This document shows, piece by piece, positions 32,301 through 61,600 of a DNA stretch of 64,000 bases. The DNA is from a virus. The position numbers were made by a program, and so were the translations under genes. The stretch lies in the IMG/VR virus record IMGVR_UViG_3300043688_000007; one strand, given 5' to 3'. The notes below the pieces were generated by a model. It searched no databases, had not been told where the DNA came from, and saw nothing but the letters and a program-made list of their open reading frames with translations. Numbering within the stretch: the first letter of the stretch is position 1; every line of letters starts with the position of its first letter.

Positions 32301-32435
32301 TCACCCCGCGATAGCTGCCGTGACCTGACAGATGCCCCAGCCGATGATTAGGCCGCGAGTGTTAGGGCTGACAGCGAACGCTAGGACGCCAGCCCAGTAG
32401 CCGATCATGGCCCACTTCTGACATCGCCAGTCCAT
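32301..32435 (-). CDS. Small membrane protein (44 aa)
   Basis: MDWRCQKWAMIGYWAGVLAFAVSPNTRGLIIGWGICQVTAAIAG. TGATG overlap with the upstream stop. Confidence 0.45.
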   Translation of the reverse strand: MDWRCQKWAMIGYWAGVLAFAVSPNTRGLIIGWGICQVTAAIAG

Positions 32436-35372: not shown

Positions 35373-36395
35373 GTGAATAGTCTCGGAGAAAGGACAGGCC
35401 CATACGGGAACACCGCCCTCAAATATATCAAGGCCGGATGGCCAGAGGCGATGCCCATATGGCAAGGCGGGGCCAAGGATAAGCAGCCGATGGTACGAGG
35501 GTATCACGGCCGTGATGGTACCTGGCCTGACGAAACAACAAGCACGATGTGGGCTGGCAGGTACGCCCGCGCGAACATAGCCCTGCGGCTGCCGCGGTGG
35601 ATCGTTGGGCTCGATGTCGACCACTACTCGGAGAAGTATGGCGGGGATTCCCTGGCCGAACTGCAGGACGAGCTGGGCCCGCTACCTGGGACGTTCGTCT
35701 CTACCTCGCGCGACGACGGCGTGAGCGGTATCAGGCTCTTCATGGTGCCTGGCGACTTCGCCGGGGCTGCGTGGCCGTCTCAGGCTTCGGTCGACATCGA
35801 CATGATTACCTGGTACGAGCGCTACGTGATCGTATCCGCGTCGGTGCACAAGAGTGGCCGGCCGTATCGCTGGCTGCTGCAAGATGAGTACGGCCACAGT
35901 ATGAAGCCGCTGCGCAATGATCGTGTCGTTCCTGCGCCGAGCGACATGGAGATGCTGCCGATCGAGTGGTGCGAGTACCTGACCGGGCTGGCCGGGAATG
36001 GTTCCGAGAAGTGGAATGATTCCAGTTTCGACGGCTCCGCGCGGCAATGGCTCATCGACTATGGCGGCGGCGAGCCGTGCAGGTACATCGAGGGCCGAGC
36101 CGTGCGTATGCTGGAGCGCATGAACGACGGTGGTTCGCTTCACGAAACTACGAAGCTTGCCGTGGCTCAGCTGGTGAAGGCTGCAGCCGAGGGGCATACC
36201 GGAATCAACTCTGCGCTCGCGCCGATACGTGAGCTGTTCATCTATAAGCTCGGCGCGCGGGGTGCGGGCGAGCGTAGGCGCGGGGAGGCCAAGGCAGTAC
36301 AGGAGTGGCGCGCCATGGTGAGCGGTGCCGTCGCGAAGTATGGGGGTGAGGTCGAGGACGAGGACACTGTCTGCAACGAGCTGGCGGGCTTCTGA
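35373..36395 (+). CDS. Bifunctional DNA primase/polymerase (PrimPol, N-terminal Prim-Pol domain)
   Basis: GTG start. ALKYIKAGWPEAMPI...ANIALRLPRWIVGLDVDHY...GGDSLAELQDELGPLPGTFVSTSR...SGIRLF is the typical Prim-Pol pattern. Confidence 0.8.
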   Translation: MNSLGERTGPYGNTALKYIKAGWPEAMPIWQGGAKDKQPMVRGYHGRDGTWPDETTSTMWAGRYARANIALRLPRWIVGLDVDHYSEKYGGDSLAELQDELGPLPGTFVSTSRDDGVSGIRLFMVPGDFAGAAWPSQASVDIDMITWYERYVIVSASVHKSGRPYRWLLQDEYGHSMKPLRNDRVVPAPSDMEMLPIEWCEYLTGLAGNGSEKWNDSSFDGSARQWLIDYGGGEPCRYIEGRAVRMLERMNDGGSLHETTKLAVAQLVKAAAEGHTGINSALAPIRELFIYKLGARGAGERRRGEAKAVQEWRAMVSGAVAKYGGEVEDEDTVCNELAGF

Positions 36396-37690
36396 TGGCG
36401 GCGGACGAGGAGTTTTGGGGCAGCTGCAAGGAGCTACGCCTGATACGTCAGTTCGCGCACTATCATGTAGGCAGTCCGTGGTCATACCTCGGATCGTGTA
36501 TGGCGCGCGCAGTTACTGCTGTGCCGTATAATGTGGTGATACCTGACATCATCGGCAACTACGTGTCGACTGGGATATACATAGCACTGGTAGGCGATCC
36601 CGGTCACGGGAAGGGCAGTTCTGACGGTGCGGCTGCCCGGCTGATGCCGTGCGATATATACTCATCAAAGCTAGGCAGCGGCGAGGGTATCACGCATCAG
36701 TTCGCCTACCGCGACAAGGCTGATGGGGAGCTACAGTGGCGTGAGCGCTCTATCCTGTTCGAGTCATCAGAGGCTGAGACTATGCGCGCCCTAGCTGGGC
36801 GCAAGGACACGACGCTGATGGGAGAGCTACGTAGCGCGTGGATGGGAGAGTCACTAGGCTTCGCGTACTCTGACGTCAGGAAGCGTCTAGTGCTTCCCTC
36901 ACTTAGCTACCGGCTTAGTGTCCTGGCATCATTCACTCCGAGTGTTAGCGATGTGCTTCTGGATGGGGTATATGAGGGCACGCCACAACGGTTCCTCTAT
37001 CTGCCAGTGAGTGAGCCCGAGCTACCCGACGAGGATGCCATCAAAAGGCCGAGGACGCAGCTACACCTGAATGTTCCTCCAGTTAGTGAACTAGACCTGG
37101 TCCAGGTTGAGGTGCCAAGCTGGGTGCGGTATGAGCTACGAGAGGATCACAGGGCAAAGGTGCGCCGTGAGTTCGGGCAGATGAGTGAGGGTGAACTTCT
37201 CGACACTCATATCAATCTGGTACGGCTGAAGGCTGCTTTCGCCCTTGGTCTAGTAACCAACCCCCATCGCCATGATTACTACATCTCTGAGGAGGACTGG
37301 GAGCTATCTGGGTTTGTTATGAACAAATCGCGCGAGACGCGTAATAGGATGATCGAAGCGGCAGAATCCGCGCGGCTGTCAAAGAACAAGAAGGAGGGCA
37401 AAGACCTCGGCGTTAGGTATGAGGCCGCTGATGAGCGTCGCAGGCTAGGTCCAGCAATGGAGCGTATCGAGGTGATACTCAGGGCCGCGAGAAAAGACGG
37501 CAATCCCATAATGAGTCCGGGTCACATTCGCCAGAAAATGAGTCCCAATCAGCGCAAGCTATTTGACGAGGCAGTCCAGCCTCTTATCAGAGACGGAAAG
37601 GTGGAAGAAGTGAAGGGAGTCATTGCTACTTCGGCGCAGGGCAGGCGGGCTCTTAGCGTTAGATTCCGGTGGGCGAAGCGAGCGATCTAA
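36395..37690 (+). CDS. DUF3987-like NTPase (primase-associated helicase/loader-like), paralog 2
   Basis: TGATG coupling to PrimPol. IALVGDPGHGKGSS P-loop. ILFESSEAE Walker-B-like segment. Confidence 0.6.
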   Translation: MAADEEFWGSCKELRLIRQFAHYHVGSPWSYLGSCMARAVTAVPYNVVIPDIIGNYVSTGIYIALVGDPGHGKGSSDGAAARLMPCDIYSSKLGSGEGITHQFAYRDKADGELQWRERSILFESSEAETMRALAGRKDTTLMGELRSAWMGESLGFAYSDVRKRLVLPSLSYRLSVLASFTPSVSDVLLDGVYEGTPQRFLYLPVSEPELPDEDAIKRPRTQLHLNVPPVSELDLVQVEVPSWVRYELREDHRAKVRREFGQMSEGELLDTHINLVRLKAAFALGLVTNPHRHDYYISEEDWELSGFVMNKSRETRNRMIEAAESARLSKNKKEGKDLGVRYEAADERRRLGPAMERIEVILRAARKDGNPIMSPGHIRQKMSPNQRKLFDEAVQPLIRDGKVEEVKGVIATSAQGRRALSVRFRWAKRAI

Positions 37691-37977
37691 CCCATGGCAG
37701 CAAATCTAACCCTAAATCTAACCCACCTAACCCTTTCGACCTGCGGCGATACCGCTAAAATCGGTGGGTTAGATGGGTTAGATGGCATCGGGAGAGAAAA
37801 AGGGAAAAAGTATCAAAGAGAAAACTACAGGGAGAAGATAGCAAACATAGTCTGACCAGGTATTATATATAATATACAAACAAAAAGTGTTCACGTATTA
37901 TAAAGAGTTTGATATGTATTTCGAGAGTCGATTTTTTCCCGGATACGATCTAACCCATCTAACCCATCTAACCCACC
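37685..37977. repeat. Ori-like locus: ATCTAACCC iterons in direct and inverted orientation flanking a very AT-rich core
   Basis: Direct copies at 37685, 37704, 37716 (plus acctaaccc at 37725). Inverted gggttagat x2 at 37766-37783. Three tandem copies at 37948-37974. The core includes tattatatataatatacaaacaaaaag. Confidence 0.65.
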
Positions 37978-38047
37978 GCACGCGGAGGTACGAACTGGCG
38001 AAAAATATCGGCGGCAAAATCTGGCAATCAGACTGCAAGGAGGGACC

Positions 38048-39082: not shown

Positions 39083-39174
39083 GTGACAGAGTTCTCTTCA
39101 TACTTGCAGCAGTGCTGGCAGTGGCAATTATCGTGATCATCGCCTTGTTCTATCGCGATATCAACGTCGTGTAG
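39079..39174 (+). CDS. 31-aa hydrophobic peptide
   Basis: MSDRVLFILAAVLAVAIIVIIALFYRDINVV. ATGA overlap with the HNH stop. Confidence 0.4.
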   Translation: MSDRVLFILAAVLAVAIIVIIALFYRDINVV

Positions 39175-39191
39175 TCGACCGTAGTCGACCC
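39169..39191 (+). repeat. Two tandem GTAGTCGACC decamers (same motif as the 49-kb array)
   Basis: gtGTAGTCGACCGTAGTCGACCc, ~115 bp upstream of the DUF2637/Lsr2-like gene. Confidence 0.6.
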
Positions 39192-39306: not shown

Positions 39307-40146
39307 GTGGACAGAGCGCGAAAGATAGTGGCTGCAGTAACTGGAGGGTCGCTGTGGCTGGTCATCCTCGTGCCCGTGCTAGCTATCAGCTGGGTCGGGT
39401 TCTACACGATTGCCCGGGCTGTGGGCGTGCCGCCGCTATTCGCTATGGGCATGTCAGCAGCCTTCGACGGTGTAGCGATCTTCGCTGCACGGACGGGCCT
39501 AAAGCACAGGCGCAAGGGCTTCAGCGGTTACCTTGCACGTATCACCGTCCTCATGTTCGTAGCGCTCGGCGTGTTCGTGCAGAGCTTCCACAGCGATACG
39601 ACCACGTGGGTGCACAACCACGCCTGGGTAGTCTGGGCAGTCGCCCCGATCGCTGCAGCGATATGCTACGAGCTGCACCTCGGCTGGATTCATCGCAAGC
39701 AACTCATCAAGCACGGCTATACCCATCCCTCTGCAAAGAGCGGCTACGGCCCTGCAACATGGCTCATGATCGGCGGTACGCTCCGTGAGTATCGCAACGG
39801 CCTGCGCGCGCGGAGGGACTTCATCTCTGCAACGAACCTTGCACGGTTCCGCATCGAAGAGGATGAGCAGCCCGTGATACCCCCTGCAGTGCCGCCGAAG
39901 CCTGCGCTGAAGCCGCGTCCTCGTCCAAGGCCGCAGCCGAAACCAGAGCTGCAGGGACCTCCCGGTCCACGGCTCGTACATTCCACAAGGCCAGCTTCCA
40001 AGCGTCGTGCAGTTACCGAGAACATGAAGATCGCTGCATGGTGCCGCGAGCAGGGCATCCAACTGGGCTACCGAGATCGAGTGCCTGCAGAGGGACTGCG
40101 CCGTTACCGTGCAGCACACCCTTCAACCAGTCGTGCAGCAGCCTGA
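39307..40146 (+). CDS. DUF2637-like multi-pass membrane protein fused to Lsr2-type C-terminal DNA-binding domain
   Basis: GTG start. 4-5 TM spans in the first ~170 aa. Pro-rich linker. C terminus KIAAWCREQGIQLGYRDRVPAEGLRRYRAAH aligns with Lsr2 [29 protein letters not shown]. Confidence 0.7.
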   Translation: MDRARKIVAAVTGGSLWLVILVPVLAISWVGFYTIARAVGVPPLFAMGMSAAFDGVAIFAARTGLKHRRKGFSGYLARITVLMFVALGVFVQSFHSDTTTWVHNHAWVVWAVAPIAAAICYELHLGWIHRKQLIKHGYTHPSAKSGYGPATWLMIGGTLREYRNGLRARRDFISATNLARFRIEEDEQPVIPPAVPPKPALKPRPRPRPQPKPELQGPPGPRLVHSTRPASKRRAVTENMKIAAWCREQGIQLGYRDRVPAEGLRRYRAAHPSTSRAAA

Positions 40147-46884: not shown

Positions 46885-47028
46885 TTACCGGAACGTCGCG
46901 AGGATAAGTGCAGCGCCCTCTGCACTTAGCGCGGGCATTGGCTGCATGCGCCGGTACTCCTGCATTTCCTCGATCAGCTCAAGAATGGCGTGGAACGGAA
47001 CCGCGCCGTATTCGTAGAGGTGCTGCAT
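46885..47028 (-). CDS. Small protein (47 aa; below cutoff)
   Basis: AGGGAG RBS. MQHLYEYGAVPFHAILELIEEMQEYRRMQPMP... Confidence 0.45.
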   Translation of the reverse strand: MQHLYEYGAVPFHAILELIEEMQEYRRMQPMPALSAEGAALILATFR

Positions 47029-47038
47029 CACGGACTCC

Positions 47039-47371
47039 CTATCCGACGAGGGCAGGCACGCGAACGCCGCCCCGCTTCTGCATCATCGCGGCTACCCGCG
47101 TCCGAATATCTGCAACCGTTAGGTCGCCGTCGTCGCTACGCGCGAGATTGCAATCTCGGCACGCAGGTACGATGTTGTCCCTTCGGTAGCTACCGCCCGG
47201 GACGATCCGGTCAGCCTCAACCGTCGCCTCGGTTAGCTCGGTACCACACTCCCAGTAGCACGCGACTTTGACGCCGTCGCCGCCGAACCCCGACGCGGGG
47301 GATACCAACCACTCCCGCCTACGCCGACGGTCGGCGCTTGACCCTCGCCTATCGCCTCCGGCCCTAGCCAT
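47039..47371 (-). CDS. HNH endonuclease (small)
   Basis: CYWECGTELTEATVEADRIVPGGSYRRDNIVPACRDCNLARSD. First gene of the leftward early unit. Confidence 0.7.
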   Translation of the reverse strand: MARAGGDRRGSSADRRRRREWLVSPASGFGGDGVKVACYWECGTELTEATVEADRIVPGGSYRRDNIVPACRDCNLARSDDGDLTVADIRTRVAAMMQKRGGVRVPALVG

Positions 47372-47405
47372 CCCGCTACCTCCCGCGCCTAGTTGACGCT
47401 TCGAA

Positions 47406-47457
47406 CTTTCGTACTCCGTACGAAAGTACTAACGTACGAAACCCCGGAAAAATTCCC
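47406..47457 (-). promoter_or_regulatory. Class II 32-nt promoter-like block plus 9-bp inverted repeat, start of the leftward early transcription unit
   Basis: On the - strand: GGGAATTTTTCCGGGGTTTCGTACGTTAGTAC, followed by the palindrome ctttcgtac-tcc-gtacgaaag (47406-47426). Confidence 0.5.
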
Positions 47458-47639
47458 GAAATTTGCTTAGTTCGCGTAACGATTTAGTAACGGCCAAAAC
47501 CAACCTCGCCGGGCGCGAAAAGGATCAATCGCTCGATACCGAACGACATGATGCCCGGGGCCCAGCTAGGCTCGTGCTCACAGCTATGCGACGCGCGGAT
47601 GTGCTCGACCTAGGTCGGCGTTCGTGATGCCACGAGGGT

Positions 47640-48060
47640 CAAAGCGGTCGAGTGTAGTCGAGTACCAACTAGGCCGGGCCCGGCTAACCTACAAGTCCTA
47701 CCGGATCACTAGGCAATGATCTCGAAACCGTCAATCCCGACCGTCAAGCTAGGGAATGCACTTCCCCGACCGCGACCGGTCGAGTGTAGTCGACCTCCCG
47801 GCCCGGGGCCTCATGTAGTCGACCTTACTCGACTACAACCCTCGCTCGGGATCGAAGCGTCAACCGGTCGACTAGGGTCGACTACATGACCGCCCGGCCC
47901 GGGCGAAAGACGTCAATCCCGACCGGTTCGGTAGACTACATTCCCGACCGGTTCGGTAGGTTTGACGTTCGGGCCCCGGACGCGCGCCGCGCCGCCGAGA
48001 TGTAGTCGACCCTAGTTGACCCTAGGCTTGTGTAGTCTAGGGTAGTCGGGGGACCTAACT
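47640..48060. repeat. Dispersed GTAGTCGAC motifs in both orientations, paired with GGCCCGGGCC-type GC palindromes and other short direct repeats
   Basis: gtgtagtcga at 47652, 47784, 47814 and 48001. Inverted gtcgactac at 47829 and 47877. gtcaatcccgaccg x2. tcccgaccggttcggtag x2. ccgggcccgg-like palindromes after several copies. Confidence 0.7.
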
Positions 48061-48197
48061 TAAAAAAGTTCGTCTTTTCGGCCGAAACCGGGAACTTACG
48101 GCGGAAGGGAAGCGTTATAGGTAGTAGTTCGGTTAGTTCGGTTCGGGAGGTTAGCGCGAGCGGTTCGCGCGCCCGTACCGTGGAAGGTAGGTTTACG

Positions 48198-48599
48198 ATG
48201 AAAGCTCTTACGGAGTACGCGCGAGAGTCCGCTAGCCCGACGATGGAAGCGTTTGCCGACTTCCTTATCTCGGAGGTCTACGGCGGGACCCTCCCGAGGG
48301 GGATTGACGAAAAGGCGTTCCGCGAGGGGGTCCGCCTCGGCGGCTCGACGCGCGGTTTCTTCCAGAAGTCGGAGTACTGGAAGAACGACGCGCGTAACTA
48401 CCTCGCGAACGTCGACGCGCGACGCGCGGAGCGGGCGGCAGAGCGCGCCGAGAAGGCTAAGGCGTCGGCCGAGAAGGCGCGCCTACGGGCCGAGAAGGCG
48501 ATCGCGGACGCCGAGGCGATCGCCGAGGCGGCCCGCGCGAAGCTCGCCGCGCTAGCGGACGACGCGGACGACGCGGACGACGCGGAGGACGCCGCGTAG
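48198..48599 (+). CDS. Paralog B of the 25019..25711 family (conserved N domain + Ala/Glu/Arg coiled coil + poly-Asp tail)
   Basis: Start MKALTEYARE after GGAAGG. LTEYARESASPTMEAFADFLISEVYGGTLPRGIDEKAFREGVRLGGSTRGFFQKSEYWKNDARN. It is the only gene inside the repeat hub. Confidence 0.6.
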   Translation: MKALTEYARESASPTMEAFADFLISEVYGGTLPRGIDEKAFREGVRLGGSTRGFFQKSEYWKNDARNYLANVDARRAERAAERAEKAKASAEKARLRAEKAIADAEAIAEAARAKLAALADDADDADDAEDAA

Positions 48600-48615
48600 T
48601 TCGAACGTTCGAACG

Positions 48616-48643
48616 AAACCCGGCCGGGAAACCGGCCGGGTTT
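48616..48643 (+). terminator. Rho-independent-type terminator
   Basis: aaacccggccgg-gaaa-ccggccgggttt, followed by a T-rich stretch. Confidence 0.7.
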
Positions 48644-48700
48644 TCGTATTTTCGGACGCCCGGATTTTCGAATATTAGTACGTATCGCCTAACGATATAT

Positions 48701-48957
48701 CGCGTTCGTTCGTACGTTCGTTCGATCGCTCGTTCGTTCGAACCCTCCCGGATCGCGGCCGGATTTTCGAACGTTCGTTCGTTCGCTCGTTCGTTCGAAT
48801 CGTCCTCGGAATCTGGGCGCGGTTCGAACGTTCGTTCGTTCGCTCGTTCGTTCGAACCGGCCCCGGGGAAAGTCCATCTTTTCGAACGGCCGTTCGATCG
48901 AACGTACGAACGTATCGTAGCACGATATACCGCGTCCGTTCGAACGTTCGTTCTAGC
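48701..48957. repeat. (CGTT)n / TTCGAA-rich blocks
   Basis: Three ~35-43-bp blocks (48701-48743, 48766-48800, 48823-48857). The last two are identical over ~34 nt: ttcgaacgttcgttcgttcgctcgttcgttcgaa. Flanked by CGTATCG..CGATATA.CGCG direct repeats. Confidence 0.7.
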
Positions 48958-49437
48958 GTACGGTCGACTAGGGTCAACTCTAGCCGGGTACGGTCGAGCG
49001 TAGTCGACTAGGGTCAACTACGCTCGGGTAGGGTAGAGTGTAGTCGAGTAGGTACTACCCTAGTTGACGCTAGACGGGTGTAGTCGACTAGGTACTACCC
49101 TAGTTGACGCTAGACGGGTGTAGTCGACTAGGTACTACCCTAGTTGAGACTAGACGGGTGTAGCCGAGGCTAGACGGGCGTAGGTGACTATAGGCGGGTG
49201 TAGTCGACCCCGGGCGAGTGTAGTTGACCTTACCCTAGTGTACTCTAGCCTAGTCGAGTGTAGTCGACCCCAGGCGGGTGTAGTCGACCCTAGCCGACCA
49301 TAGTTGAGGCTAGACGAGTGTAGTCGACCCTAGCCGGGCGCGCTTGACCCTAGTCGAGTGTAGTCGACCCCGGTCGAGTGTAGTTGACCCCACTCGACTA
49401 CAGTCGAGCCCACTCGGTGGGGGTCGACCCCCTTGCA
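48958..49437. repeat. Helically phased array of about 45 TAGTCGAC-type decamers (with 20-bp and 40-bp super-periods)
   Basis: Nearly every 10th base from 48961 to 49430 starts a decamer such as tagtcgaccc, tagttgacgc or tagacgggtg. GTGTAGT[C/T]GAC at 49038, 49078, 49118, 49198, 49218, 49258, 49278, 49318, 49358 and 49378. Confidence 0.9.
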
Positions 49438-49740
49438 CCCGCGATGCCAGACCGGCGAAGCTGCCGCTGTGGCAAATCGGAAGCAATTGCCATGCCATGG
49501 TGATGCACTTCCCAGATGCCCCAGCGCGGGGGTATACTCGGTACTAGGCACCATCACGCATTCTGATGGGCGGGCGGCATTGTGATATATGTGTCTGCGA
49601 GACTCAGGTGGTGGTGCCCTAGCGCGCAAGCGAAGCGCGGGGTATAATCGCTTCATGCCACCATCATCAGCAGCGGGGCCAAGCCCAGCAGCACAGGGCG
49701 AAGTGGTAGGAGACCGGCTGGCGACAGCGTAGACAGATCA

Positions 49741-50430
49741 TCACACATACTCCCTCAGCTGGAGCCCGAGATGGAACGTATACAGCGGAGGGATGGCTTG
49801 CGACATTTCATCGGTCGACATCCAGTCGATGCCCATCGCGTGGGCCCATATCTCGCGCTGCGTCTGGCCCTTGAAGTGTGAGCCATCACCGCGGCCATAC
49901 ACGTACACGATGCCGCGTCGGACCTCACTGCCCCGTCCGTTCGGCCGCTGGATGTAGCGGAGGTCCAGGTCTTGCCACGTATGCCAGCAAGGCACTCCCT
50001 CCAGCTCGCAGTTGCTCTCGAACAGCCTGTGCCGTTGGACGCGGAGCCCGAGCCCACTCCCGCAAATCTGCACCGGCTTGATCATCGGAGCGCCGGGCAC
50101 GTTCTCAATGATGTACGGCAGCCCAGTCTCCTCAAACACCCAGCGCGTGTATTCAACCAGCTTCGGGTGCGCCTTCGTGGTGAGCGTCTTCGAGATGCTG
50201 TAGCCCTTGCACGGAGGGCTCCCAGCGATGGCGTCGAAGTTGCGCCCGATCCGCGCAATCTGCTTGTCGCTGAGCTTCGTGATGTCATACTGGTAGAATC
50301 GCTTGGGCCAAGGGAAGCTGGGCTGCGGCTCGATGTCGGACCCCCACACCTCGAATCCTGCCATATGGTAGCCCATCGAGGTGCCACCTGCCTTACAGCA
50401 CCAGTCGAGCAATTTAAGCCGTCGCCTCAT
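49741..50430 (-). CDS. Compact DNA (cytosine-5)-methyltransferase
   Basis: Motif I-like CCKAGGTSMGY, motif IV GSPPCKGYS, motif VI IIENVPG, motif VIII RVQRHRLF, motif X-like MSQAIPP. Only 229 aa, so the target-recognition domain is very short. Confidence 0.8.
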   Translation of the reverse strand: MRRRLKLLDWCCKAGGTSMGYHMAGFEVWGSDIEPQPSFPWPKRFYQYDITKLSDKQIARIGRNFDAIAGSPPCKGYSISKTLTTKAHPKLVEYTRWVFEETGLPYIIENVPGAPMIKPVQICGSGLGLRVQRHRLFESNCELEGVPCWHTWQDLDLRYIQRPNGRGSEVRRGIVYVYGRGDGSHFKGQTQREIWAHAMGIDWMSTDEMSQAIPPLYTFHLGLQLREYV

Positions 50431-50435
50431 ACCCC

Positions 50436-50464
50436 TAGTCTACCGCGTCCGCGTCCGCTATACT
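50436..50464. promoter_or_regulatory. Symmetric back-to-back promoter pair for two apparently leaderless genes
   Basis: + strand: TAGTCT-N17-TATACT, then 6 nt, then ATG 50471. - strand: TAGTAT-N17-TAGACT, then 6 nt, then ATG 50430. Confidence 0.5.
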
Positions 50465-50470
50465 AGCGCT

Positions 50471-50755
50471 ATGCCACCTTCACAAGCAGCAGGCCCGGGG
50501 CCATCTCTGCCTCAGATCAACGCCATGATCGCCGCCGCGCGGAGCTACATCCATTTCACTACGCCACCTGCGAGCGGACACAATGATCACCAGGTCCTAT
50601 TCTGGGCCGTCGGCAGTGACAATGCCACGGTGGTTCCGTATATCGCCAGCACTGATGATGCCAAGACGGTCATCCCGGCCAATTCCGTCTCTGCCGACTA
50701 CATCATCCTCAACCCATACAGCGAGTGCGAAATCTGCGTTAGGCCACCACAATGA
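50471..50755 (+). CDS. Hypothetical protein (94 aa)
   Basis: ATG 6 nt after the TATACT box. ATGA overlap with the next gene. Confidence 0.5.
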   Translation: MPPSQAAGPGPSLPQINAMIAAARSYIHFTTPPASGHNDHQVLFWAVGSDNATVVPYIASTDDAKTVIPANSVSADYIILNPYSECEICVRPPQ

Positions 50756-51333
50756 CGCCATGGCTCGATATAGCCAATAACGCTATCGACGCATACCGAG
50801 CTCAGCAGCAGGCTCCCGAGCTAGCTGTGCTACTCGCGTTCATAGACTCTACAGAGCCCAGGTCCGTTCTCGAAATTGGATCAGCAGACGGAGGGCTCGC
50901 CTGGGCCATCATGCAGATTGCGTCGGTATCAATGCTCGTAACGATCGACAAGACGGTAACTAGAGGGCATCAGCAAGTATGCGATCTTTTCCCCGCTCGG
51001 ATTCTGGCTATCTATGGAGACTCCACGGACGAGAAGATCATCCACCATGCAATGGCAGAGGGCGATTACGATGTCGTGATCATCGACGGAGGTCATGATT
51101 GGAGGACGGCATCATCAGACTGGAATAGCTACGCATCAATGGCCAAGTCAGGAGGGCTGGTAGTAGTCCATGACACGCAAGGGTATCACAACTTCAGGGA
51201 CTTTGATGTTCCTACGATGTGGGCGACTGTCAGGAAGCGAGCTAAGTCAGTGGACCTGGTATCAATGCCGGGGGTCGAAGCAGGCACCGGCATTGTATGG
51301 GCTGGTGAAGGCGAATGGTGGGATGTTCTATGA
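50752..51333 (+). CDS. Class I SAM-dependent methyltransferase (O-methyltransferase-like)
   Basis: SVLEIGSADGGLAWAI...VTIDK...IYGDSTD...YDVVIIDGGHDW pattern. Confidence 0.75.
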   Translation: MTPWLDIANNAIDAYRAQQQAPELAVLLAFIDSTEPRSVLEIGSADGGLAWAIMQIASVSMLVTIDKTVTRGHQQVCDLFPARILAIYGDSTDEKIIHHAMAEGDYDVVIIDGGHDWRTASSDWNSYASMAKSGGLVVVHDTQGYHNFRDFDVPTMWATVRKRAKSVDLVSMPGVEAGTGIVWAGEGEWWDVL

Positions 51334-51941
51334 GCAAGCATGAAGGCGTCATGATCGGCTACGTCAGGCCATTGATGGTTCATGGCGAATTCATGGAGGC
51401 TCTCTTCGTTGAGGCCAACCGAGCTAAGGCTAAGGTCCACGGCATGTGGTCCGAACCATACGTGGACGCCGCGCGGAACAGGGTTGTGGAGTTCTTCATG
51501 GCCAGCGACTGCGAATGGTTCCTCTCGGTCGATACCGACATCATCCTGCCTGACCTAGTGGTTCAGAGGCTAATGGCGCGGAGGCAGTCTCTTGTAGGCG
51601 CGCTCATCTATGTAGATGCAGACCCCATTTTCCCGCAGATATACAGCAAGATAGCTGACTTCGGATTCGGTGGGATGGGCCAGTACGTTGTCAATGAGGC
51701 GTGGAACCCCGGCGAGCTGGTCAAGGCTGACGCGACCGGCGCGGGGTGTCTGCTTATCCATCGCGAGGTATTCGACAAGATACCGGAGGGTTCGCAGTAT
51801 CGCTGGTTCGAGCACGAACGTGAAGGCCAGCAGATGTTTGGCGAAGACTTCACGTTCTGCCGAAGAGCGCGCCAGGTCGGCTTCCAGCTATACATAGACA
51901 CGGCGGTACATGCGAAGCATATCAAGACCAGGTATATCTAG
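51330..51941 (+). CDS. Family-2-like glycosyltransferase
   Basis: Start MSKHEG in ATGA overlap. FLSVDTDII (DxD) and GEDFTFCRRA (ED) motifs. Confidence 0.7.
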   Translation: MSKHEGVMIGYVRPLMVHGEFMEALFVEANRAKAKVHGMWSEPYVDAARNRVVEFFMASDCEWFLSVDTDIILPDLVVQRLMARRQSLVGALIYVDADPIFPQIYSKIADFGFGGMGQYVVNEAWNPGELVKADATGAGCLLIHREVFDKIPEGSQYRWFEHEREGQQMFGEDFTFCRRARQVGFQLYIDTAVHAKHIKTRYI

Positions 51942-52008: not shown

Positions 52009-52108
52009 ACCCGTGTGCTGGTCCAGAAAACAGTGGTCCCGTTGCCCCCAAGCTTCAGACCGACTCTTGCCCTGGGCCAGCACACGGAGAGGAAGCCGGA
52101 GTAATTCC

Positions 52109-52627
52109 ATGCCAGCGCACACCAAACCTCCTGCCCGCCGTACGGGGGCAGGAACTGGACGAGGCGACGACCCACGCTTTATCAGGGTCAGTACCGGTGT
52201 TGCGTCTGACAAGAGCTTCCCAATACCCACTGCGGACCCGAAGTGGCACCCGAAGGCCAGGAGCTGGTACAACTCGCTCAGGCGTTCTGGCCACTCGCAG
52301 TGGTTTGAGCCGTCGGACTGGGCAACAGCTGTCGCTGCGGCTGACGCCTATAATGTGTTCCTACGGTCGTACAATGCTAGTATTCTAGCCCAGTTCGTTC
52401 GGCTCAGTGAGCGTCTTGGAGCGACACTCACTGATCGCAAGCGCAGCCGTATTGAGCTGGAGGAGCCCGTGCTGGAAGATGAGGATGAAAAAGCAGCTGA
52501 CGAGGCAGTCCAAGGATGGCAAGGCCGTCTGCATTCTGTCCAGTTAGCTATTACCGACCAGGTTGGCGAAACAGCCTGGCGTAAGGTGGTAGACGGGCAT
52601 GTCCAGCATTACAGCAGCAATTGTTAG
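52109..52627 (+). CDS. Terminase small subunit (actinophage type)
   Basis: Internal ATG after GGAGAGGAAG. KWHPKARSWYNSLRRSGHSQWFEPSDWATAV...LGATLTDRKRSRIELE pattern. Position before terL. Confidence 0.6.
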   Translation: MPAHTKPPARRTGAGTGRGDDPRFIRVSTGVASDKSFPIPTADPKWHPKARSWYNSLRRSGHSQWFEPSDWATAVAAADAYNVFLRSYNASILAQFVRLSERLGATLTDRKRSRIELEEPVLEDEDEKAADEAVQGWQGRLHSVQLAITDQVGETAWRKVVDGHVQHYSSNC

Positions 52628-52768
52628 CGTAACTCGAAATTCCACGGGAACTGTCACCTAGCACGCCCTTCACTGTGCATAAGTGAGGTTATCGAACTAG
52701 CCTAACTTGTACCGTGGGGGTACTGCGTGCTTAGCGTGTTCTGGGGCGATTCGTTTATTCAGTGCGTC

Positions 52769-52900
52769 ATGGTCGCATATGGCACCTTGATGCTGTTTTC
52801 GTTCTCGATATTCTTTGGCCTGGGCATACTTCTCGCGCGCTACTTCAAGCCGCGCGGAGAACATCGTTTGTGCCGTGTTGATCGTTGGGGTGACCGCTGA
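52769..52900 (+). CDS. Candidate 43-aa hydrophobic peptide between terS and terL
   Basis: MVAYGTLMLFSFSIFFGLGILLARYFKPRGEHRLCRVDRWGDR. TGATG overlap with the terL start (GTG at 52727 also possible). A mirror ORF exists on the - strand. Confidence 0.35.
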   Translation: MVAYGTLMLFSFSIFFGLGILLARYFKPRGEHRLCRVDRWGDR

Positions 52901-54561
52901 TGGCACCCCACAGCACAGTCGCGCCCCGCGACCGTACCGTGACAATACCGGACGGTATTCCCAAGTTGACTCTCGGCTGGGAAGCCATTCATTGGGCATC
53001 CAAGTATCTAAGGCAGCCAGATGGTCCTAACACTGGTGAGCGGTGGGAGTTCATTGAGAGTCAGGTACGTTTCATTCTGTGGTGGTACGCTCTCGATGAT
53101 CGCGGCAGATGGCTTTTTTATCATGGTGTCCGTCGATACCCCAAAGGCGCGGGTAAGAGTCCTTTTGCCGCTGTCCTATCCCTGATCGAGCTATTGGCAC
53201 CAGTACGCCTCAAGGACTTCGACAAGCGGGTCATAGGAGGATGTGTTGGTCGGCCAGTGGGTATGCCCTTGGTGCAAATTGCAGCAACAAGCCACGATCA
53301 GGCTAATGTCAATACGATGCGGATGGTGCGTGCGCTCCTCCCACCCAAATCACGGATACGTGGTGATTATGACGTTGAGACTGGGAAGACTGTTTTCCAC
53401 ATCCCCGGTGGCGGACAGCTCATGGTCATCACTTCAAGTCCTGTATCAGAAGAGGGCGCGCTCGTAACATTCGCAATCCTTGACCAGACAGAGAGCTTCT
53501 ACCCTGTTAATGGTGGTGTCGCGCTCGCGGAGGTTCTCGACCGTAACGTCGGCAAGTCAGGTTCACGACTACTGGAGACGAGTAATGCCTGGACTCCCGG
53601 TCTGGAATCAGTTGCAGAGAATACCTTTGACGCCTGGGTCGCTCAAGAAGAGGGCAGACTACGCGGTCGCGGACGTATCCTCTATGATAGCAGGATGGCT
53701 CCACCAGACATTGACTTCGAGGACGACGAATCAATCCTCAGAGGTGTACAGTATGCTTATGGCGATGCATTTTGGGTTGATGCCGACGACATCGTCCAGA
53801 ACCGCATCCTCAGCCCAAAAAATCCGCTCGATGTTTCTAAGCGGTATTATCTGAACTGGCCTGAGGCCGCAGAGGATGCTTGGTGTACACAGCAGCAGTG
53901 GTCGAAGATGGCGGACCCTGCGTTCTACATCGAGGACGGCTCCGACATTACAATGGGCTTCGACGGTAGCCGAGTCAATGACGCTACGGCCTTGATAGGA
54001 TGTCATGTCAAGACAGGCTTCACGTTCAGCCTAGGCATCTGGGAGACTGATGATGGCCGGGTGCCGATTCCCGTATATGAGGTCGACGCGGCAGTCAAGG
54101 CAGCCAAGGAGCGGTGGAACGTCGTTGCGTTCTTCGCCGATGTCAACGAGTGGGAAGAGCACACCAAGATAACCTGGCGAGATATGTTTGAGGAAGACTT
54201 GCCAGTCTGGTCGGTCCCCGCAGGACGCGACCCTCAGCCCGTGGCCTGGGATATGCGCTCGCACATCGCGGAGTTTACCATGGCGTGCGAAATGGTGCTA
54301 GGCGAGATTGAGAGCGGGACGTTTGTGCACGACGGCGACAGCTTCCTCGGTCGCCATGTTACGAACGCTCGGCGACGCCCCAATAGGTGGGGAACCAGTA
54401 TCGCCAAGGAGAGCCCGAAGTCATCACGCAAGATTGACGCGTGTGTGGCGATGATAATGGCCCGCCACGCGCGGAGGCTGGCCCTATCGAGCAAGACGCT
54501 CAAGGAACAGCAGAAGGAAGCTGAGCGCGTTCACAAGCGAGTTGTCTGGAGCTTCTCATGA
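52900..54561 (+). CDS. Terminase large subunit
   Basis: 553 aa. Walker A-like RRYPKGAGKSPFAA. Typical order terS-terL-portal. Confidence 0.9.
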   Translation: MAPHSTVAPRDRTVTIPDGIPKLTLGWEAIHWASKYLRQPDGPNTGERWEFIESQVRFILWWYALDDRGRWLFYHGVRRYPKGAGKSPFAAVLSLIELLAPVRLKDFDKRVIGGCVGRPVGMPLVQIAATSHDQANVNTMRMVRALLPPKSRIRGDYDVETGKTVFHIPGGGQLMVITSSPVSEEGALVTFAILDQTESFYPVNGGVALAEVLDRNVGKSGSRLLETSNAWTPGLESVAENTFDAWVAQEEGRLRGRGRILYDSRMAPPDIDFEDDESILRGVQYAYGDAFWVDADDIVQNRILSPKNPLDVSKRYYLNWPEAAEDAWCTQQQWSKMADPAFYIEDGSDITMGFDGSRVNDATALIGCHVKTGFTFSLGIWETDDGRVPIPVYEVDAAVKAAKERWNVVAFFADVNEWEEHTKITWRDMFEEDLPVWSVPAGRDPQPVAWDMRSHIAEFTMACEMVLGEIESGTFVHDGDSFLGRHVTNARRRPNRWGTSIAKESPKSSRKIDACVAMIMARHARRLALSSKTLKEQQKEAERVHKRVVWSFS

Positions 54562-58614: not shown

Positions 58615-61600
58615 ATGACTAGCCCAGTAGTCACTTTCTTGAATAATGCGTCCTCGAAGGTTGCGAATACCGGCATTACTACCAATGCCGCCTCTAGGAC
58701 GTGGAGTGTTGGCGACTTCCTGGTTGCGCACGTTGCCATGGACCCTACTTCTGGGACTGTGTCCTTTGGGGCAGTGTCTAATTTTGGTGCGTGGGCCACA
58801 AGCATTGACATAGCTCAGGGATCGGGCACGTCTGGGGTACGCAGTATCGTGTCTTACTGCCAGTGCACGACTGGGTTTACTGGCACCGTGTCCGTTACCG
58901 CTACGATACCGTCAACGACTGCTAAGTCAATGAATTTGTTCGTCGCTACTGGTTGCGACACCACGACTCCAGTACGTGGTACGCAACAAATAGCTAGCGC
59001 TACTAATGCTGGCATCTCGCAAACAGTGACCGCTGGGGCTAACATTGACGCTACTGCTATGGCGTTTGGTGGTTGTGAGGGTCCAGGCGGGTCATCTAAT
59101 ATTGTCGGGACCGGTGGCTGGCCTGTTACTGGACCCCAGTCGGCGTCGACTGCCGGCACCACGGGCTCGGGCTCGGCGTCCAATATATCCAATGCGTATC
59201 AAGGCGAGTCGAATACTAATGTCGCGGCTGGCACCTCTACCGGAACGATGCAGGCCTCCATAAGTGGCGCAGCTAATGCAGTAATTCTAGTCATATTCGC
59301 CTCACCTTCTGGTAGTCCCGTTACTTATCCAGTAGCAGGATCTAGCACTTCTGTTTCCTATGCGAATGGTACCGTTACGCAGCAGATGACATTGTCCGGC
59401 TCATCTGACACTACCGGAAGTGATTCTGCTAGCGGAACATTGTCGCTAAATGCACTGGTATCTGGTACATCTGACACTACAGGAATTGATTCTGCTAGTG
59501 GTACAGTAAGTATTGTTTCGCCGAGTGCCAATGTCACCCAGGTAGGCACTCCCGCTGCAGTTACGATTCAATCGGGAAGCAACACCGGCAGCGTTACTGG
59601 CGTCTGGGGTACGGGACAGAACCGGACGGCTGGTAACTTGCTAGTCGCTAACGTTACCGCGTATGGCACTACTACTTGCGGTGTTATATCGACTCCCTCC
59701 GGATGGACGCAGCAGTATCAGATTGCCTCGGCGAACGCGCACGCTCAGGTAGCACAGTTTACTAGAGTTGCAACGGGAGGGGACGCGGCGCCAACCTTTA
59801 CCGCGACCATGACTGGCACGGCGGCCAACGAGCGGATGTCATGTTCATTGTACGAACTAACTGGAGTAGGGTCAACTCCAGTATTCACGAATGGCAACGC
59901 TACGTCAGCCGCTACTCCGATGACGGTTACTTCCGGCGCAAATGTCCCTGCGTCCGGGTACTATGGATTGTCAGTCTGGCTTGCGTCCAATACGAGTGTT
60001 ACTACCACAACGATCGGAACTGGGACTGGCTGGACCAACGTATCGGATACCGGAGCCACCTCCGCGCGGACTCACTCGCATGAGGACATTATATCCAACC
60101 CCAGCACGGGTGCTGTCCTTTCCGAGCAGTCCTCGATGACAGGTACGGTCTCGGACTTCACTGGCGGCATGCTGGTCATCGCCCCGTCTGGTGGCACTAC
60201 ATATTCATTGTCTGGATCGTCACCTGCCTCATCTAGCGCCAATGGGACGCTTGGCCTTATCGGAGCTATTGCCGGATCTGCTCCGTCCTCTAGCGCAGCG
60301 AACGGAACCGTAACACTTTCTATTCTGATCAATGCCTGGTCTTCTACGGCTAGCGCGGGCAGCGGTGCTATAGTTTCTGCAATGTCGCTATCCGGCTCGT
60401 CTGCGGCCGCTAGCTCGGCTAGCGGTACTCTCGGAACACTTGGTGCTCTAGCCGGTTCATCTACCACTACTTCATCAGCTAGTGGTGCTGTTACCTTCCA
60501 GCCGATTGTCGGCTCATCTTCTACTGTCTCGTCCGCAGCAGGCACAGTAGTTCTGATCGGCGTGGTGGCGGGGAGTTCGGTTTCCGCGAGTACAGCATCC
60601 GGTGCTGTATCTCGGTTCTCTCCGTTGACTGGGCAATCCACCACCACGCCCCAGGCTTCAGGTTCTATAGTATTGGTCGGGCTGGTGTCTGGATCCAGCT
60701 CGGCCACGGCCACCGCGTCAGGCGCTTTGGGGGCAATATCACCCACAAGCGGAACCGCTGTTGCTACTCCCGGCCCAGCCACTGGCGCGGTGGCCATCCA
60801 AATGGTTGTTGCTGGGTCCTCGATTAGCGTTTCGAGCGCGAGCGGGGTACTATCGGCTACTGGCGCGGTGACGGGCTCGGCCATCGCAGCAACCTCAGCC
60901 GCTGGGGCCGTAGTCCAGACTCTGTCCCTGTCTGGTCAGTCCGTCACCGCGTCTCACGGGGACGGCGTATTTGGCTCCGCCCTCATTTCTGGTTCGGCAG
61001 TGAGCCAGACGTCGGCCAGCGGCGTAGTCACGCAAAGCCTGATTGTGGCGGGTTCAGCGACTAGTGTATCGAGTGCTAGTGGCTCGCTGGGCGCTGTCTC
61101 GCCGCTGGCCGGCTCATCATCAACCGTAAGCGCGGGGTTCGGAACAGTAACCGCCACGCTTGTTATCAATGGTTCATCAACCACAGTCTCCACCGCGTCG
61201 GGTGCCCTCGGCAGGCTTTCGCCCGTTGCTGGTTCGTCAACCGCAATCAGCTCTGCCACCGGCGCGGTGGTAATACAGGCTGGGGCCGTAACATACCCGC
61301 TTTCTGGTACGGCCCTGGCCCAAAGCGTCGCGAATGGATCCGTGTCCCTCTTCGCGGCGTTGACTGGCACATCAAGCAACGTGTCGGCAGCGAACGGCAC
61401 GTTGAGTCTGAAGGGCGTGCTAGTCGGCAGTGCGGCGTCGGTCAGCGGTGCAACGGGCTCCATCAGCCTGACCGGCGTCGTTGCTGGTAACGCCACCTCG
61501 GTCAGCACTGCTGCGGGCTCCATTGTGCTGGCCGGGGTGGTTACCGGATCTTCATTTACGCAGAGCCAGGGCTCAGGCTGGCTGGCCGGTGGGCCGATCT

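Follow-up and report, generated by a model that had tools for sequence, protein, structure and literature searches.

The window analysed here is a stretch of 64,000 nucleotides from a virus (IMG/VR record IMGVR_UViG_3300043688_000007). Within it, a long array of head-to-tail decamers follows a small conserved gene, and further copies of the decamer motif lie on the upstream side. The features up to the end of the array, in window coordinates, are the following.

39169–39191, + strand: GTGTAGTCGACCGTAGTCGACC, an isolated tandem pair that precedes the DUF2637 gene 39307–40146
47039–47371, − strand: gene for an HNH endonuclease, which opens the leftward operon adjoining the right end
47650–48075, no strand: scattered copies of the motif, in either orientation, upstream of the terminal gene (motif scan, relatives)
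48198–48599, + strand: conserved terminal gene, 133 amino acids from its ATG, next to motif arrays in every relative
48615–48644, + strand: intrinsic terminator of the terminal gene (terminator scan)
48708–48955, no strand: 57-bp repeats with GAAC-N4-GTTC boxes, between the terminal gene and the array (repeat finding)
48958–49437, + strand: terminal array of TAGTYGAC-type decamers (repeat finding, autocorrelation, decamer counts)

The array consists of 47 decamers (47–48 by the feature table) that span 480 bp without an indel, at the position where a sequence-only reading had placed it. In the frame 48961+10n, 28 of the 47 decamers start with an exact TAG, 30 with TA and 32 with at most one mismatch to TAG, while random 470-nt frames elsewhere in the window average 0.54 TAG starts and never exceed 4. 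The repeats keep a period of exactly 10.0 bp, power at 10.5 being absent, with sub-periods of 20, 40 and 5 bp; tandem repeat finding (TRF) gives periods of 10, 20, 40 and 80. The earlier proposal of 10-, 20- and 40-bp periodicity is upheld by autocorrelation against Markov shuffles (z-scores of 10, 14.5 and 20 at lags 10, 20 and 40, and of about 6 at lags 5, 15 and 25). The 20-mer consensus is GTGTAGTCGACCCTAGnCGA, and the 40-bp units that had been described from 49038 are recovered by TRF as 3.2 copies at 95% identity (49038–49167). Nine of the ten GTGTAGT[C/T]GAC starts listed in that reading are exact, while the one at 49038 ends in GAG instead of GAC; the perfect palindromic cores it mentioned are present as TAGTCGACTA at 49001, 49081 and 49121. 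The core motif of the array is TAGTYGAC, in which the TA step occupies a single fixed phase measured from the genome end. Counted on both strands, TAGT[CT]GA[CG] has 39 occurrences in the 64 kb, where 8.1 ± 2.5 would be expected, and 32 of these copies are located within 47370–49452, the terminal 2 kb.

Two independent assemblies from different samples (L030 and L031) match the hub that includes the array (47371–49740) base for base, and the array is therefore not an assembly artefact. The array is non-coding, and the ORFs over it are repeat artefacts, as the sequence-only reading had held and in agreement with the JGI gene calls; the hub as a whole, which it called gene-free, holds one conserved gene, 48198–48599. 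The array is not transcribed from this gene, because the terminator at 48615–48644 lies between them. A search of 47000–50500 against Rfam is empty. The suggestion that all sites point to the same side of the helix is valid only for DNA with a turn of 10.0 bp. On relaxed B-DNA the sites drift by about 17° per repeat, or about 2.3 turns across the array; overtwisting or wrapping of the DNA would be needed to bring them onto a common face. With the 5-bp sub-period, TA steps fall on opposite sides of the helix, an arrangement that speaks against simple curvature.

Two functions proposed from the repeats themselves find little in the composition of the array. An iteron-type replication origin would agree with many phased direct repeats in a non-coding region. 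However, the array has a G+C content of 58% without an AT-rich unwinding element and has no adjacent replication gene, and a textbook-like candidate exists at 37685–37985, where ATCTAACCC iterons, direct and inverted, surround a 150-bp AT-rich stretch directly after the primase/helicase gene; an origin in the array itself is thus hardly credible. Equally hard to credit is an RNA polymerase/sigma decoy or promoter cluster. This idea draws on the TTGAC found in a minority of the units and on the distant relative L034, in which a different decamer (TTGACATGAC) runs in the opposite sense, with 38 tandem TTGACA/T decamers. Most units of the array read TCGAC, not TTGAC, the unit spacing puts no −10 element 16–18 bp after a −35, and a sigma-70 consensus scan of 48958–49437 for −35/−10 hexamers at 16–18-bp spacing finds no promoter-like pair.

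From the last array unit onward, the sequence has the organization of a genome end, and the features on this side are listed below.

49421–49432, no strand: last array unit, the 12-bp palindrome GGGGTCGACCCC (decamer register; near-invariant in eight related phages)
49433–49452, no strand: variable spacer, 17–19 nt in relatives, ending in conserved (C/G)AGAC (seven contig stops)
49453–49463, no strand: CGGCGAAGCTG, probable cohesive-end overhang of 4–11 nt, probably 3′ in type (junction-spanning contigs)
49464–49520, + strand: conserved left-end block, GTGTGAAAAGTGATGCAATTTTGCATGC... in relatives (contig comparison, HK97 analogy)
49525–49660, + strand: two leaderless-type promoters of the left end, with TATACT at 49533–49538 and TATAAT at 49643–49648
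52013–54561, + strand: terminase small subunit (TerS, Terminase_7; 52013–52627) and large subunit (TerL; 52900–54561), 2.5 kb inside the left end

Seven independent metagenome contigs of related phages end at one homologous nucleotide, equivalent to 49452 in the window, with the shared end sequence ...GGGGGTCGACCCC-N17-19-(C/G)AGAC. Left-end contigs, which carry terS, begin 4–11 nt past this right-end stop. One contig of 70,172 bp has both termini at the site, and L028 and L050 are its two ends. The joined site is read through by three contigs, this window included, as ...GAC followed directly across the stop by CGGCGAAGC..., and CGGCGAAGCTG is seen only in such junction-spanning contigs, being missing between right-end and left-end contigs. 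Breakage of the assemblies at the repeat is rejected as the origin of these stops, since they lie in unique variable sequence 17–19 nt past the last unit and since seven assemblies stop at the same nucleotide, none of them including the conserved sequence beyond. With contig ends as a proxy for read pile-ups, the terminus mapping suggested earlier is positive. By the contig stops, left-end starts and read-throughs together, the array makes up the final ~0.5 kb at the right end of the linear, cos-type chromosome of an uncultured soil phage. We infer that 49452 is the last base pair of the right end, about 22 bp after the final unit of the array. Among the geometries that had been offered for phased decamers, the packaging site or terminus is the one favoured by the data.

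The terminase genes agree with this assignment. TerL homologues are all from actinophages and, among the matches listed, lie within a few kilobases of the record start, with one exception. HNH proteins are a common partner of HK97-type cos terminases. The TerS of HK97, the nearest cos system to have been studied, requires one 15-bp site downstream of the cut, at +15 to +29 (PMC11331095), and by analogy the left-end block 49464–49520 is the candidate TerS recognition site. The array is adjacent to the cohesive-end cut, as seven contig ends and three read-through junctions show, on the side opposite terS and not on the terS, first-packaged side where a cosB-type element would be expected. A role of the array in packaging initiation through TerS is, by the same HK97 analogy, unlikely. 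By position the array would fit a cosQ-type element, an upstream site needed for cutting when packaging ends: the palindrome GGGGTCGACCCC, conserved and some 20 bp before the cut, is here treated as a cosQ-like landmark. If the order of packaging is as in lambda, HK97 and SPP1, by analogy the array DNA would be packaged last and ejected first.

All relatives found carry a decamer array of 0.3–0.75 kb with the TAGTYGAC core and the same register to the end. The orientation of the array relative to the end is the same in eight of nine phages, L034 being the exception. The last 110 nt are 80% identical across eight phages and the units nearest the genome end are the best conserved, while the cut-proximal spacer has fully diverged. 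The neighbouring terminal protein has only 46–76% identity across these phages. The arrays vary in length and unit order, although the TA phase is free of indels over at least 40 repeats and the core motif is retained. Internal arrays of some relatives have units spaced by 18 or 28 bp, and an inserted palindrome moves the phase in L028 and L038; strict phasing of the whole array is therefore not universal.

The variability in length and unit order is what a neutral, slippage-prone satellite that persists in non-coding terminal DNA would produce. A purely mechanical role, in which TA steps at 10 bp ease the bending of the last-packaged DNA, would likewise involve no specific binder and would account for steps that are strictly 10-bp and partly 5-bp periodic. 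Such explanations are improbable. The core motif, orientation, register and terminal 80 bp are kept even though the adjacent spacer varies freely, and the motif is reused at promoter-proximal sites.

Among 50,697 phage records, BLASTN with the hub and with 7 kb of flanking sequence finds no relative, and tblastn with the terminal protein and distant family members gives nothing convincing, the best matches (E about 0.1) being 69-kb Streptomyces phages. A 16-mer motif scan of IMG/VR yields 27 loci, only one of which, the 70,172-bp relative, has an array, the others being chance matches. With an 18-mer block from the terminal palindrome, two loci are found in IMG/VR and 46 in GTDB, with no array except in the known relative.

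The terminal gene product has a small helical N-domain, a single coiled-coil-type helix of 60 residues and an acidic tail ending in -AA. By a hand count of charged residues, the N-domain is not basic. Searches with the whole protein and with the N-domain alone against Pfam, PHROGs, PDB sequences and, by Foldseek, PDB and BFVD give nothing significant, and no ribbon-helix-helix (RHH) or winged-helix (wHTH) match is found. A deep profile search recovers 140 relatives, and the extra regions of ten longer family members that were scanned contain no known domain. The gene and the arrays remain neighbours also in genomes in which the gene points the other way with respect to the end, and its product is the best candidate for the array-binding protein.

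The motif copies noted earlier outside the array are real, as the tandem pair at 39171/39181 and scattered copies in 47650–48050. The dispersed copies finish in a conserved composite element, TAGTCGGGGGACCTAACTTAAAAAAGTT, at 48040–48075, and in several relatives they occupy conserved positions upstream of both the terminal gene promoter and the early leftward operon; they are operator-like. As 32 of the 39 copies lie in the terminal 2 kb, they do not form a stoperator-type set, which would be spread over intergenic gaps throughout the genome, follow the direction of transcription and have an identifiable repressor. The sole clear helix-turn-helix protein is 25784–26047, and nothing ties it to the motif. 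The GAAC-N4-GTTC boxes between the terminal gene and the array, the only four in the window (48769, 48826, 48884 and 48942), are similar to LexA/Cheo boxes.

These sites, and the promoters just past cos, raise the possibility that the array acts in transcription. When the ends are joined, about 100 bp separates the array from the downstream left-end promoters, the second of which has TATAAT followed by 6 nt and then an ATG at 49655. A bound or titrated activator or silencer could then time late or left-arm expression, while the dispersed sites control right-end early promoters. Leaderless-type promoters just past cos, motif copies fused to the conserved element upstream of the terminal gene promoter, motif doublets that precede the early operon in L029, L034 and L039, and palindromic operator-like boxes (GAAC-N4-GTTC or GTTAGC-N3-GCTAAC) interleaved with arrays are all in keeping with such a role. 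Yet at least 45 sites far exceed any bacterial promoter-control region, and neither the register and orientation fixed to the cut nor the best conservation near the end is explained. We regard this transcriptional reading of the array as unlikely.

A cluster of oriented sites at an open end could also be directed against nucleases. In LLS and MD8, the Chi-clustered right end is the one that the terminase cut leaves open (PMC12315714), and a Chi-like array would switch a host helicase-nuclease of the RecBCD, AddAB or AdnAB type, entering from the right end, to recombination or arrest. The geometry resembles that of LLS and MD8, lambdoid cos phages with 20–32 oriented right-end octamers (PMC12315714). 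The orientation of the array is tied to the end and not to the neighbouring gene, and in eight of nine phages, L034 having the opposite sense, the motif is carried by the strand whose 3′ end lies at the open right end. The candidate host motif would be GTAGTCGAC. However, a Chi cluster would be expected in a phage that uses the host's Chi, a word over-represented and skewed in the host genome, and that lacks its own recombination module, and this phage encodes an exonuclease and a Sak4-like annealase; such a module accompanies few Chi sites (PMC12315714). The motif is restricted to the terminal 2 kb and is not genome-wide. A 10.0-bp phase is not required for Chi recognition, nor are in-phase decamers that lack the motif, such as CCCTACCCTA. 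Words that contain CTAG are rare in actinobacterial genomes, unlike a host's Chi. A Chi-like function is on balance quite improbable.

The remaining proposal is a partition centromere (parC- or tubC-like) of a plasmid-prophage, in which adaptor-coated repeats and a filament-forming NTPase would segregate the genome. The array does consist of tandem direct repeats in the 10–12-bp range, with a small gene beside it, and its 20-bp units of two head-to-tail 10-bp half-units are like those of type II centromeres such as pSK41 parC. No ParA, ParM or TubZ homologue, no operon of an NTPase with an RHH or wHTH adaptor, no integrase and no obvious lysogeny module occurs among the ~50 window ORFs scanned, with 5.6 kb of the genome lying outside the window. 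A protein-guided scan of 185,579 species genomes finds no prophage copy or other relative, and the array is bound to the cos cut and not to a partition operon. A centromere, one of the options listed in the sequence-only reading, is very improbable.

The location at the genome end and the upkeep in related phages probably make the array a protein-binding platform for end handling rather than an origin, a centromere or a cluster of promoters. Cooperative protein binding to a phased array, as a general idea, fits the data. With a probability of about 0.4, the array is a cooperative platform for an end-specific nucleoprotein structure that serves cos processing, end protection and local regulation. 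The units would be sites for a sequence-specific, self-associating phage protein, with the product of 48198–48599 as the best candidate, which would coat or wrap the array cooperatively; the exact 10.0-bp period would favour an overtwisted or solenoidal complex. The resulting structure would occupy DNA that enters the capsid last, leaves it first and is exposed when terminase cuts the concatemer. Its likeliest job would be to handle the end by cos, aiding recognition and cutting of the terminal cos by the motor and nuclease, in which the array would act as a greatly expanded cosQ-side element, and/or shielding the end. The same protein probably uses the few dispersed sites as operators of right-end promoters.

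The genome-end evidence, the HNH gene near the end, the conservation of the terminal units, the linkage of gene and array and the reuse of the motif near promoters are counted in favour of this platform. The Chi clusters at the right end of cos phages provide a precedent for clustered oriented sites at packaging ends (PMC12315714), and debate continues on a model in which DNA is wrapped in a TerS 'nucleosome' (PMC9611059). Counted against it are a terminal protein with no recognisable DNA-binding fold or family and an N-domain that is not basic, and the HK97 TerS site, which is across the cut from the array, and the size of the array, which is far larger than known cosB or cosQ. The 18- and 28-bp internal spacings, the phase shifts of L028 and L038 and the opposite sense of the L034 decamer also count against it.

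A more specific and rather doubtful possibility is that the array is a new, end-defining cis-element. Its exact repeat of 10.0 bp (and 5 bp), which stays in register with the cos cut for ~50 units, would act either as a track that phases or brakes the motor near the terminal cut or as a site that nucleates a telomere-like cap. The cap would cover the sole end that lies exposed both on entry and once a concatemer has been cut. For track and cap alike, the protein would have a new fold, encoded by the adjacent gene.

The array bears on how tailed phages recognize and finish chromosome ends, a problem that is only partly solved. To our knowledge, little has been described of the last-packaged side of cos apart from the cosQ of lambda, and the fate of the first-ejected, nuclease-exposed end is poorly understood except in E. 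coli phages. An uncultured actinophage clade retains a phased array of 0.3–0.75 kb locked to the end, with a conserved partner gene whose product matches no known fold in the searches above. Such an array is a natural, highly multivalent substrate that could reveal whether phages use end-specific nucleoprotein caps or motor-phasing tracks. A 2022 review found weaknesses in every proposed model of TerS–DNA binding (PMC9611059), and the HK97 TerS site has been solved since (PMC11331095). Since decamer arrays break or end metagenomic contigs, they are usable as markers of true termini in viromes.

Several known systems share part of these properties. The stoperators of Cluster A and the 17-bp palindromes of Cluster O are actinophage-specific short motifs that become denser toward the right end, but they are single sites found genome-wide, of unrelated sequence, and not a tandem phased array that abuts cos (PMC4351075). 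The Cluster O repeat was considered as a match for the array and dropped, being a different, dispersed palindrome. Type II and III centromeres (R1, pSK41 parC, tubC) have head-to-tail 10–12-bp repeats in 20-bp units, a small neighbouring gene and an expected cooperative superhelical coating; the array here, however, is 5–10 times longer, anchored at the packaging cut and without a partition NTPase among the ORFs scanned.

The p6 protein of phi29 is small, abundant and acidic-tailed, wraps an end-proximal periodic signal and also regulates early promoters. It reads bendability with a 24-bp period and not a sequence motif, and phi29 replicates by protein priming from its ends, whereas the phage here has cos ends and a replisome with DnaE and primase. 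The adenovirus A-repeats, the DR2 arrays of the HSV 'a' sequence, the SRL/SRR heptamers of T7 and the pac hexamers of P1 are short repeats within a few hundred base pairs of a terminus or cleavage site, redundant and dependent on position. Their motifs, periods, proteins and lineages are others, and we know of none among them that is a ~50-unit array phased at 10.0 bp.

In the Chi clusters of LLS and MD8 (PMC12315714), one oriented short motif is also found at the right cos end, on the strand that ends 3′. These sites are scattered over kilobases, whereas the units here are contiguous and phased within 0.5 kb, in a phage with its own recombination genes. The cos sites of lambda and HK97 have cis-acting recognition elements directly beside the cohesive-end cut, as here. 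The landmark conserved about 20 bp upstream of the cut recalls the cosQ of lambda, and HNH, TerS and TerL genes are all present. The array differs in its location on the upstream, last-packaged side and in its exact 10.0-bp period, and in having ~47 units over 480 bp where the lambda and HK97 accessory sites number one to three.

Read in the frame 48961+10n, the array at 48958-49437 is an unbroken series of 47 decamers. TAG begins 28 of the 47, and 32 lie within one mismatch of it, whereas random frames elsewhere in the window average 0.54 TAG starts and never exceed 4; the decamer run described by the sequence-only reading is therefore real. Its periodicity also holds against Markov shuffles, with base autocorrelation at z=10 for lag 10, z=14.5 for lag 20 and z=20 for lag 40, and a weaker yet clear signal (z about 6) at lags 5, 15 and 25. 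Tandem Repeats Finder returns periods of 10, 20, 40 and 80, with a 40-mer in 3.2 copies at 95% identity at 49038-49167. The 20-mer consensus is GTGTAGTCGACCCTAGnCGA and its information peaks at TAGTYGAS; the copy at 49038, earlier read as ending in GAC, ends in GAG. Two assemblies made independently from other samples match the surrounding hub (47371-49740) at every base, so the array does not stem from assembly error and does not vary between those samples. The hub, which had been called gene-free, contains one real gene, the conserved small terminal gene (48198-48599, plus strand; product gp48198). The repeat has a period of exactly 10.0 bp and almost no power at 10.5; sites on relaxed B-DNA would precess by about 17° per unit. 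Of the proposed helical phasing, the 10-bp period stands, while placement of all sites on one face requires the DNA to be overtwisted or wrapped. A solenoidal or overtwisted complex fits this period better than straight one-face binding.

At the DNA level, none of 50,697 deposited phages is related to the window, and no prophage copy was found in 185,579 species genomes. Assemblies about 69.6 kb long turn up repeatedly in JGI metagenomes. Placed genes include:

150-3668, tape measure
35373-37690, rightward, prim-pol pair
40.1-47.4 kb, leftward, run of small genes with an HNH endonuclease gene (47039-47371) first
52013-52627, TerS (Terminase_7)
52900-54561, TerL

Other structural and lysis genes encode an SPP1-type portal, scaffold, Dit, minor tail proteins and endolysin, and a leftward replication block encodes a DnaE-like polymerase, an exonuclease, a Sak4-like annealase and a DUF3987 primase/helicase-like protein. 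The head-assembly module also contains a 1,197-aa ORF (58615-62208) without a PHROG match, between the VG15/protease-like and scaffold genes. Thymidylate-synthase-like, P-loop kinase-like, truncated-looking C5 methylase, O-methyltransferase and glycosyltransferase-like genes at 17700-18665, 32435-33628 and 49741-51941 may serve DNA or virion modification. A 353-aa ORF (19979-21040) carries plus-strand TTCTTC/CTCGTC-type repeats (20201-20544); its predicted product is acidic, of low complexity and without a family match.

The array lacks features that define cosB, parC, iteron origins, stoperators and promoter clusters, and shares only its position with a cosQ-side element and a right-end Chi cluster. 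The iteron origin suggested from sequence is hardly credible, as 37685-37985 is a far better candidate and the probable replication origin. There, ATCTAACCC iterons (four direct at 37685-37735, two inverted at 37765-37785 and three direct at 37948-37975) border some 150 bp of AT-rich DNA that follows immediately after the prim-pol/helicase gene at 36395-37690. A parC-like centromere, also proposed, is very improbable, no partition NTPase having been found among about 50 ORFs scanned. Equally hard to sustain as the iteron origin is a sigma decoy or promoter cluster, for which no promoter-like sites were found in the array.

Loci were fetched for 33 metagenomic homologues of the terminal gene, and many of their contigs finish at or inside a similar array. 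Seven contigs from different phages (L028, L038, L041, L035, L037, L039 and L029) stop at the same homologous nucleotide, window position 49452, in a shared end made up of ...GGTGGGGGTCGACCCC, a variable stretch of 17-19 bases and a final (C/G)AGAC. Contigs bearing terS begin just past 49452; L049, L052 and L059 start with CGG(C/T)TGTG, at 49464, and L050 and L051 with (G)AAGCTGCGG, at 49457/8. L028 and L050 are opposite ends of a single contig of 70,172 bp. Three contigs (the window, L055 and L034) read through the junction, from ...GAC into CGGCGAAGC(T/A)G..., and the window's own contigs pass uninterrupted through the inferred genome end. Repeat-induced assembly breaks were rejected as the cause of the ends, because these sit in unique, non-conserved sequence and the conserved sequence beyond is absent from them. 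Right-end and left-end contigs alike lack 4-11 nt (49453-49463, CGGCGAAGCTG), the pattern expected of a 3' overhang trimmed in library preparation; such overhangs are usual in actinophages. The simplest reading of these sequences is a cos genome with its right end at 49452, and the HNH gene near the end is compatible with HK97-type cos machinery. The key finding is that the array adjoins the physical end of the genome.

Beyond the end, the region 49525-49735 has a TATACT at 49533, and a TATAAT at 49643 is followed after 6 nt by the ATG (49655) of a 25-codon ORF. The left ends of relatives share this layout of -10 element, six bases and ATG, and the promoters look leaderless. Since they do, and since all 1,735 TerL homologues are in actinobacteriophages, the host is likely, from sequence, to be actinobacterial. 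Among the top matches listed, TerL lies, with one exception, no more than a few kb from the record start. The array might instead be a transcriptional control region for these left-end promoters once cos is joined, which is rather unlikely.

Counted from the end, the TA dinucleotides of the array fall nearly all in one phase modulo 10 (8/8, 9/12 and 8/16 per 100 nt in the window), and those of L041 are in the same phase. The array closes with a palindromic unit, GGGGTCGACCCC (49421-49432), that keeps the register of the TAGTCGACCC units. Over eight phages the final 110 nt are 80% identical while the spacer beside the cut is fully diverged, and the neighbouring protein is only 59-76% identical. 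The arrays of L028 and L038 (0.6-0.75 kb) alternate TAGTYGAC decamers with in-phase CCCTA or GCCTA pentamers. In L034, whose neighbouring protein is 46% identical, the terminal array (3176-3554) consists of 38 tandem TTGACATGAC decamers opposite in sense to the units of the window; these are perfect -35-like TTGACA hexamers with a 10-bp period. Internal arrays of L039, L044 and L034 are spaced at 18 or 28 bp. Palindromes of the form GTTAGC-N3-GCTAAC are embedded in or beside the arrays of several relatives, in 1-9 copies (L034 3596-3626, L035 223-475, L043 52-212, L044 175-431; none in the window), the carriers being relatives in which the terminal gene faces inwards from the end. In L028 and L038 an inserted sequence, related to this palindrome but imperfect, shifts the phase by 7-8 bp. 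What is conserved is the core motif, orientation and register relative to the end, indel-free blocks and the terminal 80 bp or so. The array is a real, strongly non-random element conserved across the clade, and its place at the genome terminus gives it a concrete context. A neutral satellite or purely mechanical sequence is improbable.

The terminal gene adjoins arrays in all relatives, in variable orientation. In the window, L028, L038 and L041 it faces the end; in L029, L034, L035, L037, L039 and L044 it faces away, and oppositely oriented arrays lie on both sides of it; this arrangement suggests that the gene was flipped by recombination between arrays. The orientation of the terminal array relative to the end is constant in both layouts, which matches a Chi-like array facing a host helicase-nuclease, and right-end Chi clusters in cos phages are a real precedent (PMC12315714). 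Such an array leaves the phase, the in-phase non-motif units and the phage's own recombination genes unexplained, and is quite unlikely.

The motif is also used outside the array. TAGT[CT]GA[CG] occurs 39 times in the 64 kb, where about 8 are expected, and 32 of the 39 lie within 47370-49452. Copies in both orientations are scattered upstream of the terminal gene, and a composite element, TAGTYG(A/G)-GGGACCTAAYTTAAAAAGTT, is kept in every relative about 65 nt upstream of that gene's -10. Motif doublets precede a conserved block at the early operon start in L029, L034 and L039, and a tandem pair (39169-39191) lies upstream of a DUF2637 gene. Since these dispersed copies look like operator sites, a protein very probably recognises the motif. 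The composite element, TAGTCGGGGGACCTAACTTAAAAAAGTT at 48040-48075, contains the AT-rich inverted repeat AACTT-N4-AAGTT and was seen in all relatives examined. Other repeats occur nearby. In the non-coding DNA that separates the leftward operon from the terminal gene, 47908-47959 holds 2.1 copies of the 25-bp direct repeat AGACGACAATCCCGACCGGTTCGGT, to which 'caatcccgacc' copies near 47733 are related. The 57-bp repeats at 48708-48955, between the terminal gene and the array, carry the window's only four GAAC-N4-GTTC boxes (48769, 48826, 48884, 48942), three of them TCGAAC-N4-GTTCG; they resemble the actinobacterial LexA box, and similar ones occur in L028, L038 and L041.

On account of the linkage between gene and array, gp48198 is the best candidate for the array binder, a circumstantial assignment. 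Its predicted structure (pLDDT 84-86) has a small helical N-domain, a single helix of about 60 residues and an acidic tail ending in -AA. Comparison with PDB and BFVD structures gave no match for the full model or for the N-domain by itself, and Pfam, PHROGs and PDB sequence searches were empty. Charged residues counted by hand show that the N-domain is not basic, and its fold is not a known DNA-binding one. A full-library profile search gave 140 representative relatives, which fall in PHROGs of unknown function. The comparison covered gp48198 and proteins P0044-P0050. Nearly all close homologues end in -AA; among the six relatives whose sequences were read, the more distant ones are extended at the N-terminus and carry basic RGRGR/AKP-rich tails with acidic tips that finish in PF or PY, reminiscent of SSB C-terminal tips.

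As judged from lambda, HK97 and SPP1, packaging would begin at cos and proceed into the terS side. HK97 TerS requires one 15-bp A-tract site downstream of the cut, at +15..+29 (PMC11331095), and the conserved left-end block at 49464-49520 is its candidate counterpart; for this reason the array is probably not the packaging start site. In lambda the right end is the one left open on the concatemer following the terminase cut (PMC12315714). By analogy, the array would be packaged last, leave the capsid first and lie at the end open on the concatemer after cutting. Its units may be phased sites on which a phage protein that self-associates and reads a specific sequence assembles a nucleoprotein structure peculiar to this end, for end handling beside cos. 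This structure could act as a much enlarged cosQ-side element that helps the arriving motor or nuclease to locate the terminal cos and cut it, could protect the exposed end, or both, and the same protein would use the dispersed sites as operators. This combination of phased binding platform, end handling and operator reuse is the favoured explanation, with a confidence of about 0.4. The array's position, conservation and phase and the reuse of its motif are observed, whereas protein binding, the binder, the packaging direction and the function are inferred.

No description was found of about 50 units arrayed in exact 10-bp phase and fixed relative to a cos cut. A lesser possibility is that the array belongs to a new category, as a track that phases or brakes the motor or as a telomere-like cap with a protein of novel fold. 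Among known systems, the array would be most like, in its working, the cis-acting repeat sets beside packaging sites, such as lambda cosB/cosQ, the P1 pac hexamers, the adenovirus A-repeats and the HSV DR2 arrays, while its geometry resembles that of type II centromeres and of the phi29 p6 end complex.
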